Program-made: the position numbers and the translations under genes
The notes under the pieces: model-generated
What the model saw: the letters and a program-made list of their open reading frames with translations, nothing else
What the model was told of the DNA's origin: nothing
Database searches by the model: none
Shown here: one piece after another, positions 56,569-64,000 of the stretch
How the letters are laid out: each line of letters begins with the position of its first letter
Position numbering within the stretch: the first letter of the stretch is position 1
NCBI GenBank assembly: GCA_902464405.1
Contig: CABQJD010000001.1
Span: forward strand, 22,408-86,407
Length of the DNA stretch: 64,000 nt
DNA from: an uncultured Actinomycetaceae bacterium
GTDB lineage: Bacteria; Actinomycetota; Actinomycetes; Actinomycetales; Actinomycetaceae
Direction of reading: 5' to 3'

Positions 56569-56619
56569 TTTCTCCACTTTCTTTCGCGCGGAAGTTCATT
56601 CAGCAGTGACGATATCCCA

Positions 56620-57453
<834 letters not shown>

Positions 57454-61702: not shown

Positions 61703-61723
61703 AAGTATGAAATGAGGTTGTTT

Positions 61724-61912
61724 ATGTCGATAGCTCATAGCAAGACCAAGACTAAAAATAAGAAACTACTGCAAATTTATATAGAGCCAAATCTGCATAA
61801 AGCGTTGGGACAATACTGCTTGGATAAAGATACAAAAAACGCACCTGTAGTAAGGGAGATATTAGCTCGATTTCTTGAAAGTGAAGGATATTATAAACGA
61901 GGTGACAAATAA
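61724..61912 (+). CDS. Small ribbon-helix-helix-like protein
   Basis: LQIYIEPNLHKAL...VVREILARFL pattern; GAGG RBS; TAATG overlap with MTase start. Confidence 0.6.
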   Translation: MSIAHSKTKTKNKKLLQIYIEPNLHKALGQYCLDKDTKNAPVVREILARFLESEGYYKRGDK

Positions 61913-63477
61913 TGGCTGATAATTCCAGTTTAGGTGCTGCTAGAAACGCTAAAAATGACGAATTTTATACACAATATAGCGATATAGAAGCCGAGATGAA
62001 TGCCTATATTGAATATAACCCTGAAGTATTCAAAGATAAAACTATTCTTCTACCCTGTGATGATCCAGAATGGTCAAACTTTACTAAATATTTTGCCTCA
62101 AATTTCACAAGACTTGGTATAAAAAAGCTTATTTCAACCTCCTATGCTCAAGGAGCAGCAAATAAACAGCCCACACTATTTGAACTGATGTCGCCTTTGT
62201 ATAATCCACAGCAACATGACACACACGGGAAACTTTTCACGTTAACTCGTGATACAGATGGCAATGGCACAGTTGATACTGACGACATTGAATTTACAGG
62301 ATATCTTGAAGGCGATGGCGATTTCAGAAGTAGCGAAGTAAAGAAACTCCGTGACGAGGCGGATATTGTTATTACAAATCCACCTTTTTCACTCTTTAGA
62401 GAATTTCTAGCGTGGATCTTAGAAGCCGATAAACAGTTTGTGATTTTAGGCAACATGAACGCTATAACGTATAAAGAAGTTTTTCCTTATTTACAAGATA
62501 ATGCTATATGGCTGGGATATAAGTCATTAAATCAAGATATGTATTTTAACGTGACGGATGAGTATAAGAATTGGCTTACTCAAAATAAAAAAGAAGGATC
62601 TGCTTACAAGATAGTAAATGGAATTGTTATGGGAAGATTAGCATCGGCGTGTTGGTTTACTAACGTTGACCACGGAAAGCGTCACGAGAATCTGATACTT
62701 GACACAATGGAGCATAATCTTAAATTCAACAAAAAATTGAAGAAAAAGCTTGAAAAAGAATACGGCAAGCTCGAGTATCCTCACTACGACAACTATGATG
62801 CTATTGAAGTTCCGTTTACAGAATGCATTCCATCAGATTATGAAGCAGCTATGGGAGTCCCTATCACATTTCTTGATAAATGGAATCCAAAACAGTTTGA
62901 AGTGATAGGCGCTGATTTTGAGCTTGCGAAACCAGAACCATTACCCGATGGAAAAACAGGCACGGGACGATTCTACGTGAGAGAGAAAGAGAGTACGGCG
63001 TTTGTACTCGCGCTTGGTCATACGGAGGAAGAAATGACACAAGCATTGCTCTCTATGGGTGTTCCAATTAGTCAAATGCAATGGATATCTGGCGTTATGG
63101 GTGTGCCTATTACATTTATGGATAAATATAATCCCGATCAGTTCGATATCGTAGCGTTTAGAAAAGGCGAAGATGGCAAAGACCTAGTCTTCACGAGAGA
63201 GAGAGAGAGAGAGTACAACCGTACTTTCGTATCCTTGTACAACGTCGATTCCGGGGATGATAAAGAACGCCGAAGGAAAGATAAATGGGCATCCTACTTA
63301 CGCGAGAATAACAATCACCCGCAAATAGAGCCTGTAGATTTATTTCATCCGCTCTGCATTACTAGCAGAGCGAAAGGTACGTTAAATGGAACTATTAAGG
63401 GCAAAGAAACATATCGCAGAGTTTTAATTAAGTTGAAAACAGAGGCAGCTAGTTATGAAAACAACGCTTATAACTGA
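61912..63477 (+). CDS. Adenine-specific DNA methyltransferase, EcoRI family, with repeat-switchable C-terminus
   Basis: [35 protein letters not shown], two GVPITFxDKxNP modules. Confidence 0.9.
62979..62993 (+). repeat. Interrupted GA tract (GA)4AA(GA)2G
   Basis: Direct reading. Confidence 0.85.
63195..63213 (+). repeat. (GA)9G simple sequence repeat inside the MTase gene
   Basis: Direct reading; translated as RERERE. Confidence 0.95.
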
Positions 63478-64000
63478 TTGGACAGTTGAGGATATTTGCA
63501 AAGGCTTTATCTACGATAAAAACGAAGGTAAGGGTCTATTTGGCTTAGACGGTAAGCTTATTATTCAACCCGAATATCAAAGAAACTATATTTATGGAGA
63601 TGGCAAAAAGGACGTTGCTGTTGTAGATTCTTTGCTTAAAGGATACCCACTTGGCTTAATTTACTTTGTAAAGAATAATGACGGCACGTATGAAGTGTTA
63701 GATGGACAACAGCGTATTACGTCATTTGCACGTTTTGTCAGACAATCGTGTCCTTTTGCTGTTGAACGTGATGGCAAACCAAAATATTTCGACAGTCTTG
63801 CTCAAGATGAGCAAGATTTCATTAGCAATACAAAACTTACCATTTATGTGTGTGAAGGAACACCTTCAGAAATTGAAGCATGGTTTGAAACGATCAACAT
63901 TGCCGGTGTTCCACTGGTAAAACAGGAACTACGAAATGCCGCTTATCATGGAAGCTTTGTAACGCTTGCCAAGGAAGAATTTTCAAACACTTCCAATTCT
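63455..64000 (+). CDS. DUF262 (GmrS/ParB-like) protein, probable nuclease partner; 3' truncated, absent from ORF track
   Basis: [18 protein letters not shown]...[10 protein letters not shown]...[12 protein letters not shown]...FETINIAG..L...ELRNA. Confidence 0.88.

Follow-up and report, generated by a model that had tools for sequence, protein, structure and literature searches.

How many proteins can one short methyltransferase gene encode, and what in the gene decides among them? The question is raised by an EcoRI-family adenine methyltransferase gene in the DNA of an uncultured Actinomycetaceae bacterium, carried on a 64,000-nucleotide stretch that was analysed as a whole (hereafter, the window). 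The C-terminal module of the enzyme is present twice in this gene, and each copy runs into a GA repeat. A first-pass annotation had read the arrangement as two nested switches, giving at least four motif-bearing ends plus an OFF state; it had also suggested that the second module could be made as a separate small protein, that recombination could add combinations, and that an interruption may stabilise the first repeat in this strain. Here we compare the locus with its relatives in order to decide among these readings.

Results

The features of the locus, all on the + strand and in window coordinates, are as follows.

61712..61912, +: 66-aa open reading frame (ORF), its stop overlapping the start of the methyltransferase gene
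61912..63477, +: EcoRI-family adenine methyltransferase gene, 521 aa in its current setting, C-terminal module present twice
62851..62978, +: module 1, GVPITF motif and variable loop, ending at tract 1; same allele in 14 related loci and in most of 49 protein clusters
62979..62993, +: tract 1, interrupted (GA)4AA(GA)2G, longest pure run 8 nt
62990..63037, +: tail 1, an overlapping frame that codes for the Y-x-R strand and ends in TGA; a gain of 2 nt at tract 1 leads into it
62991..63071, +: third frame after tract 1, without Y-x-R motif, presumed OFF; not conserved
62994..63096, +: read-through linker (strand, helix and module-2 entry motif), its first 40 nt overlapping tail 1
63024..63037, +: GGAGG and ATGA overlap, candidate re-initiation site for a 147-aa module-2 protein
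63097..63194, +: module 2, second GVPITF and the start of its loop; PF13651 E 2.9e-12 by itself
63195..63213, +: tract 2, pure (GA)9G; length variable in relatives
63213..63477, +: tails encoded beyond tract 2 in three overlapping frames, all with Y-x-R and ending at stops 63258-60, 63326-28 and 63475-77
63455..64000, +: gene for a 388-aa protein with DUF262 (GmrSD_N) and HNH nuclease, continuing past the window to 64621

By profile search the methyltransferase is a member of PF13651 (E 1.3e-129 over 2 stretches, 432.9 bits against a curated cut-off of 26.4), and it also matches PADLOC MTase_II (E 1.3e-98); the catalytic TNPPF motif is invariant in the aligned rows of the family (96/96). The downstream protein matches PF03235 (E 1.3e-22) and PADLOC REase_II (E 4.9e-42). 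The two genes overlap and encode separate chains, with no nuclease-methylase fusion, and a relative of the nuclease is present in 141 of the 176 loci examined, the adjacent pair being kept together. Judged by its PADLOC MTase_II and REase_II assignments, the locus is classed as a two-gene Type II-like restriction-modification pair. PF13651 and PF03235 were the only families detected in the two genes, and no HsdS/HsdM/HsdR operon was seen by eye among the neighbours. NCBIfam returned no match for the four proteins searched; the 66-aa ORF, which had no match in Pfam, PADLOC or NCBIfam, is a possible candidate for a regulator of the operon. A promoter scan gave no candidate above shuffled sequences, and no convincing terminator was found between the modules. 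The operon sits in a stretch of low GC content (0.36-0.42 as against about 0.48) that continues beyond the window, where two small gene pairs (window coordinates 64950-67700), Doc/Phd-like and RelB/RelE-like by eye, may be toxin-antitoxin pairs. Elsewhere in the same genome, ten poly-C or poly-G runs of 10-12 nt on contigs C2, C4, C5, C6, C7, C10 and C12 are candidate phase-variation sites, and at about 56600-56660 of the window a short tandem repeat lies between two genes, with a repeated 7-residue unit in a + strand ORF.

The modules begin with ATG codons at 62851 and 63097, where the first-pass annotation had placed them, and tract 1 is, as it had stated, one substitution away from (GA)7G. 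Its predicted endings were reproduced in silico: with one GA added, tract 1 leads to a 375-aa protein with a Y-x-R tail and a TGA stop at 63035-37, with one GA removed it leads to a 385-aa protein with a motif-less end (TAG at 63069-71), and the present frame runs through into module 2 to yield 521 aa. A one-unit change at tract 2 gives 472 or 448 aa, the 521-, 472- and 448-aa forms all carrying Y-x-R. The single-module proteins of L044 and L064 end in a tail like the shortest of the tract-2 tails, as, we assume, does M.EcoRI itself. When 96 family members are aligned, two variable regions stand out: the first lies in the middle of the protein, and the second separates the GVPITF module from the last strand. 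All 96 sequences have the Arg of Y-x-R; two positions ahead of this Arg, 81 have Tyr and 10 have Phe. Because this Arg is invariant, the motif-less end is probably inactive, that is, an OFF state. The mid-protein variable loop (62520-62655 in the window, and its counterparts in relatives) has a handful of distinct alleles, which are combined in different ways with the tail alleles while cores and nucleases stay nearly identical, in which this locus resembles the recognition domains of Type I systems (on the 150-aa scale in HsdS).

By chance, 0.2 such repeats were to be expected: this is the expected number of 15-mers within one mismatch of (GA)7G in a 1.64-Mb genome, or about 1e-4 per gene of this length, and tracts 1 and 2 are the sole sites of this kind in the 1.64 Mb. 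Tract 2 is also the only run of at least 6 units in the genome among the GA, TC, CA, TG and TA types scanned. Both tracts do terminate in GAGAGTAC, as had been noticed; as a shared recombination signal this sequence was rejected, being kept in only 2 of 8 pure-tract relatives. A third, degenerate module-start copy (MGVP) lies within the linker at window 63054-63070, of which relatives keep only MGV.

Had homologues lacked a GA tract at this position, the first-pass reading would, by its own account, have been refuted. This is contradicted by the comparison of tract purity that the first-pass annotation had proposed, which we ran on all 14 related loci sharing the window's module-1 allele: in 8 of the 14 the tract is pure, and its length varies from 17 to 31 nt. 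The eight pure tracts stand in three frames (3 read-through, 2 short and 3 motif-less), counts that are not independent because the relatives are kin; the short form, with tail 1 in frame, is that of L102 and L104. Among these relatives, mostly short-read assemblies in which repeat length can be miscalled, L100 and L102 show no difference (100% identity) across 309 nt upstream or within the linker and have tracts of 23 and 19 nt in different frames, and L092, L093 and L101, which are 99% identical, have tracts of 21, 17 and 20 nt. Near-identical alleles differ in repeat length and, with it, in frame, a variation seen between assemblies rather than within a clone. Of 24 candidate sequencing runs four were mapped, and none of these covered positions 62848-63064. 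In all 15 loci, the window included, 98 nt separate the tail-1 anchor from module 2.

A wider set, the 49 protein clusters retrieved with a module-1 query, comprises 27 read-through, 11 short and 7 motif-less forms and 4 that are unclassifiable, with three of the short and five of the motif-less forms assigned by eye and the sets enriched by the queries used. Natural two-module proteins that read through module 1 include some with each of the three tract-2 tails in frame, and the four motif-bearing ends and the motif-less end that had been postulated are all found in natural sequences. In a query-enriched set of 189 distinct cores, 17 are two-module and 172 single-module, by a rule that missed the arrays of L136, L137 and L176 and merged L095-97 with L094. 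When genome samples were searched with a module query, matches were obtained in 11/338 for the window's family, 4/401 for its class and 16/236 for another family; two-module loci among the sampled genomes are those of the window, of L012's genome and of L191-194. Viral contigs contained no exact match to a tract-1 pattern and phage records no match, and the 8 plasmid matches are to module 2 only.

Several loci carry related designs. L191-L194, from four genomes of the window's family, share the two-module design but differ in their module-1 allele and in the helical linker; their GA tracts measure 9-25 nt, and two of the four are in the read-through frame and two are motif-less. Three-module arrays are found in L176 (1560-2400, on a viral contig), L136 (1680-2480), L137 and P0027. 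L176 has T9 and (ACAG)4 tracts ahead of its tail 1, and in L176 and L136 the read-through frame is offset by +1 (in the window, by -1), with a stop that overlaps the entry of the next module and no linker. Tandem full methyltransferase genes occur in L018, L038 and L041, and L153 (1500-2200) has a second gene whose core is mostly deleted and whose tail module is intact, a possible route to a two-module array.

Coding repeats of phase-variable methyltransferases are counted from a threshold of at least 5 dinucleotide units in the available text of Atack et al. (PMC7383803). Tract 2 of this strain, with 9 units, passes, as does tract 1 in the 8 pure-tract relatives, and tract 1 of this strain, with 4 pure units, falls below the five-unit threshold. 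The suggestion that the interruption stabilises tract 1 agrees with this: with only (GA)4 pure, tract 1 is probably near-locked by the G>A change, the layer being dormant but intact in this strain, and only the three tract-2 ends should therefore be frequent here. Tail 1 itself is intact. The G>A change is of a recurrent kind, since comparable interruptions are found in tract 1 of P0023 and P0135 and in tract 2 of 6 of 113 proteins; P0014 has a tract of equal length without the interrupting Lys.

Selection on the linker was estimated from six haplotypes, to which eight had been collapsed, L012 being left out because it has a stop and a second frameshift. In the 59 nt that follow the stop of tail 1 (mean identity 62%), pN/pS is 0.33 for the read-through frame, which is free of stops, as against 1.21 and 2.15, with six stops each, for the other two frames. 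Over the 33 nt in which tail 1 and the linker overlap (89% identity), pN/pS is 0.32 in the tail-1 frame, 0.52 in the read-through frame and 2.71 in the third. By this measure both useful frames are under selection, on small counts. Purifying selection on the read-through linker shows that module 2 is not decaying, and the alternative that the first-pass annotation had set against its own reading, a decaying duplication free of coding constraint, is contradicted for linker and module 2 alike.

Lineages without tract 1 serve as natural controls. In L012 and L094-98 (6 of the 14 loci, one lineage) tract 1 has been lost, and a stop truncates tail 1, whose Tyr has been replaced by Ser through a substitution that leaves the read-through protein unaltered. 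In the tract-less P0026 and P0029/30/33, which belong to separate clades, module 1 has decayed while the linker and module 2 are intact, and P0126, P0127 and P0140 are short forms without the repeat. No protein with the linker followed by a decayed module 2 was present among those found with the module-1 query. Because loss of the tract brings decay either of the short tail or of module 1, module 2 would appear to replace module 1 on read-through. Of 33 two-module proteins (under a rule that required an intact module 2), 30 have a second module closer to the family profile than their first, and a Gly at the module entry, three residues before GVP, is present in 35/35 second modules, 5/35 first modules and 75/76 single modules, a pattern that L191-194 repeat with another module-1 allele. 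Module 1 is still good, scoring above the single-module minimum, in 8 of 12 read-through proteins without a visible repeat, and in the tract-bearing P0014 and P0024 it scores slightly under that minimum. These comparisons suggest that on read-through module 1 and the linker become an insert and module 2 fills the fold. In P0035, P0036, P0134, P0141 and L176 a Cys-rich insert of about 31 residues, possibly metal-binding, lies between the IPxDY motif and the first GVP module and marks the same insertion-tolerant site.

The model of the natural short form from L104 has a pLDDT of 88.3 and a pTM of 0.87, with the last strand at about 95. In the model of the 521-aa form, module 1 is in the core (pLDDT 92-94), the last strand scores 89, the linker helix (residues 372-381) 70-74 and module 2 51-56; this model leans to module 1 in the core because single-module rows were put on module 1 in the alignment behind it. 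Class I methyltransferases are matched by both models at modest Z values (8-11), and the best matches are RNA methyltransferases: METTL5 (Z 10.8, rmsd 3.5, 163 aligned) is followed by M.TaqI (Z 9.6, rmsd 3.0, 154 aligned, model 18-331) and HsdM. A sequence search of the PDB gave no match at E<=1, and Foldseek none at E<=0.001. In both the short and the 521-aa model the last strand aligns to the same place in HsdM (2ar0 residues 462/463, corresponding to model residue 372 or 505, and 7vs4 residue 455), and because this place is at the edge of the catalytic domain, the strand may be structural. The variable loop starts where the catalytic domain of M.TaqI ends, and a preprint (10.1101/2023.12.13.571470), in its available text, puts recognition C-terminal of the catalytic domain in this methyltransferase class, M.EcoRI included; given both, involvement of the tail loop in DNA recognition is plausible by analogy. 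The topology predicted here, class A or gamma-like, is the one proposed in the available text of that preprint for M.SsoI (= M.EcoRI).

Nucleases from the window, L103 and L014 share 93% identity despite a different mid-protein loop, L014 being also without module 1, and motif-less states are found beside full-length nuclease genes (L092, L101 and L103). The predicted complex of methyltransferase and nuclease from L104 scored 0.59 against 0.00 for the best control, a weak pass: of 157 solved pairs 116 reach the mark, and of 215 mismatched ones 2, with 18 of the solved pairs and both mismatches lying at <=0.60; the runs agreed in at least 88% of contacts, with a partner pLDDT of at least 82. 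The identity of the nucleases and the complex prediction hint that the nuclease takes its target from the methyltransferase, the reading we prefer, at about even odds.

Discussion

The reading that we favour, and think probable, is that the locus acts as a tail selector, serial and decoded by slippage, for the methyltransferase of an operon with two restriction-modification genes. It builds on the anatomy, on the variation of tract length and frame among near-identical loci, on selection on both useful frames and on the decay of the unused part after tract loss. The C-terminal module would close the fold, with the GVPITF strand-helix-strand followed by a variable loop and a last strand bearing the invariant Arg of Y-x-R. 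Tract 1 would lie in the loop of module 1, where slippage within a clone would set the frame: in one frame, tail 1 would complete module 1 to give a short enzyme; in another, a motif-less end would leave the enzyme OFF; in the remaining frame, translation would read through the selected linker into module 2. Module 2 would then substitute for module 1, which would be looped out at an insert-tolerant site, and tract 2 would select one of three tails for module 2. Different tails would specify different DNA targets, and the nuclease might take its target from the methyltransferase.

The part of this proposal most open to another interpretation is the replacement of one module by the other. Module 1 could stay in the core and receive only the Y-x-R strand from tail 2, or the two modules could act side by side, as in three-domain HsdS. 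The 521-aa model, confident for module 1 and the final strand and weak for module 2, would fit such a strand swap, as would the intact module 1 of the tract-less L094 lineage, P0027, P0034 and P0037. However, that model is biased by its alignment, P0026 and P0029/30/33 combine a decayed module 1 with an intact module 2, and both the profile fit (30/33) and the entry Gly (35/35 vs 5/35) single out module 2, so we regard a strand swap or tandem domain as unlikely. The first-pass annotation had raised the possibility that module 2 is also made as a separate small protein from ATG 63034; in a stronger version this would be its main form, coupled to the tail-1 stop and acting in trans, with read-through incidental. 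The elements that the annotation named are in place (ATGA occupies 63034-37, and GGAGG, at 63024-28, ends 5 nt ahead of the ATG), and the ATGA overlap occurs in 6/6 haplotypes, is retained after a one-codon shift in L099, and recurs with other alleles in L191-193 (as TTGA in L194). The overlap is, though, partly a consequence of the codons of two frames, and GGAGG, found in only 4/6 haplotypes and accounted for by overlapping codons, was rejected as evidence of a conserved ribosome-binding site. The read-through frame is constrained upstream of the ATG (pN/pS 0.52), 27/49 clusters are fused read-through forms and tract-less lineages fix the fusion; the junctions of L136, L137 and L176 lack a start codon, and the window's present frame never stops at the TGA. 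A separate protein as the main product seems to us very improbable.

A further alternative concerns the origin of the array, in which module 2 would be a displaced relic, an old 3' end pushed downstream by cassette insertion and now a recombination donor or decaying, with tract 1 simply purine-rich coding sequence and its variation assembly noise. Two-module genes are indeed scattered on the core tree, with 10 changes of which at least 6 are forced (44 of 52 rows built, P0027 on a long branch), and this scatter points to cassette exchange over longer times. The variable regions reassort, so cassette exchange does occur; L153 resembles a deleted second gene, and tract 1 is only (GA)4 pure here. 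Against a relic, the 98-nt spacing is fixed in 15/15, the linker is under purifying selection without stops, pure tracts reach 31 nt, and tail 1 decays after the tract is lost. Moreover, recombination between tracts or modules, which had been suggested as a possible source of further combinations, left no trace in the sequences searched: hybrids joining a module-1 entry to a module-2 body, or tract 1 to tail 2, were absent from 144 proteins and 226 loci (query-biased sets). We therefore consider a relic improbable; it may account for the origin of the array, not for its decoding.

Returning to the tail selector, we tentatively extend it to the family, although we are inclined to doubt so broad a claim: the PF13651 tail loop would be a target-specifying cassette, the nuclease would follow the methylase, and serial module arrays would form a widespread, recombinase-free, multi-state switch. 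If this were true, modules gated by GA, ACAG or T tracts would retune a whole restriction-modification system, four specificities plus an OFF state would be obtained from about 630 bp, and interruptions or tract loss would tune or lock single layers. A further step, in which re-initiation at the ATGA overlap yields free module 2 that competes in trans, is less likely still, and we hold it quite unlikely. To our knowledge, known methyltransferase repeat switches have two states, or three with ON/OFF; the design proposed here would place two multi-way switches one behind the other in a single short gene and use overlapping frames that are under selection. Natural isogenic variants could serve to map the elements with which the M.EcoRI family, a family without a match in our sequence search of the PDB, recognises DNA, and the same variants would test how DUF262-HNH nucleases gain specificity. 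There is also a warning for annotation: one genome would display one of five products, and DNA after a stop that passes for "pseudogene" or "spacer" would be selected coding sequence.

No description of repeat-switched tails in PF13651 was found in the open-access literature searched, and the available portions of PMC4619093, PMC12707154, PMC12519793 and 10.64898/2026.04.01.715767 do not cover PF13651 tail switching. Within the M.EcoRI family, most members examined are single-module and without a tract, and the partner here is not R.EcoRI. The locus resembles the Type III mod phasevarions, as described in the available text of PMC7383803 and PMC12707154, in that slipped-strand mispairing would change the length of a coding repeat in a DNA methyltransferase; there, in contrast, the repeat is near the 5' end and switches the gene ON and OFF, whereas here repeats near the 3' end would choose among endings. 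It is also like NgoAV and the extended three-domain HsdS of Mannheimia and Fusobacterium, in which, according to the available text of Atack et al. (PMC7383803), a repeat between recognition modules selects a shorter or longer protein and changes specificity rather than switching ON/OFF. As presented there, however, those systems have a separate specificity subunit, one tract and no overlapping dual-coded tails, and the locus described here is not a member of them.

The closest precedent is the switch of the Helicobacter pylori Type IIG enzymes Hpy99XIV (JHP1272) and HpyAXVI (HP1353-HP1354), in which a duplicate is added by frameshift and the change in specificity was measured (Krebes et al., PMC3936762, available text). 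In both cases there are two tracts in one gene, and read-through adds a C-terminal piece that resembles part of the shorter protein; the authors propose that the added piece displaces the regular part of the recognition domain. The H. pylori enzymes alone, as far as that text describes them, are fused nuclease-methylases with homopolymer tracts, a first tract that acts ON/OFF, two active forms and a short form made by a premature stop. In contrast, the locus described here has a methylase-only PF13651 protein, a separate DUF262-HNH nuclease and GA tracts; its short form would be completed by its own selected overlapping-frame tail and its tract 2 would act three ways, for four complete ends as predicted from sequence. 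The two would work alike, and because the genes here are separate, the locus is not a member of the Type IIG group. What would be new relative to these precedents is the enzyme family, a short form closed by a selected overlapping tail, the nesting of that choice with one made three ways, and the arrays, which use other repeat units and have up to three modules.
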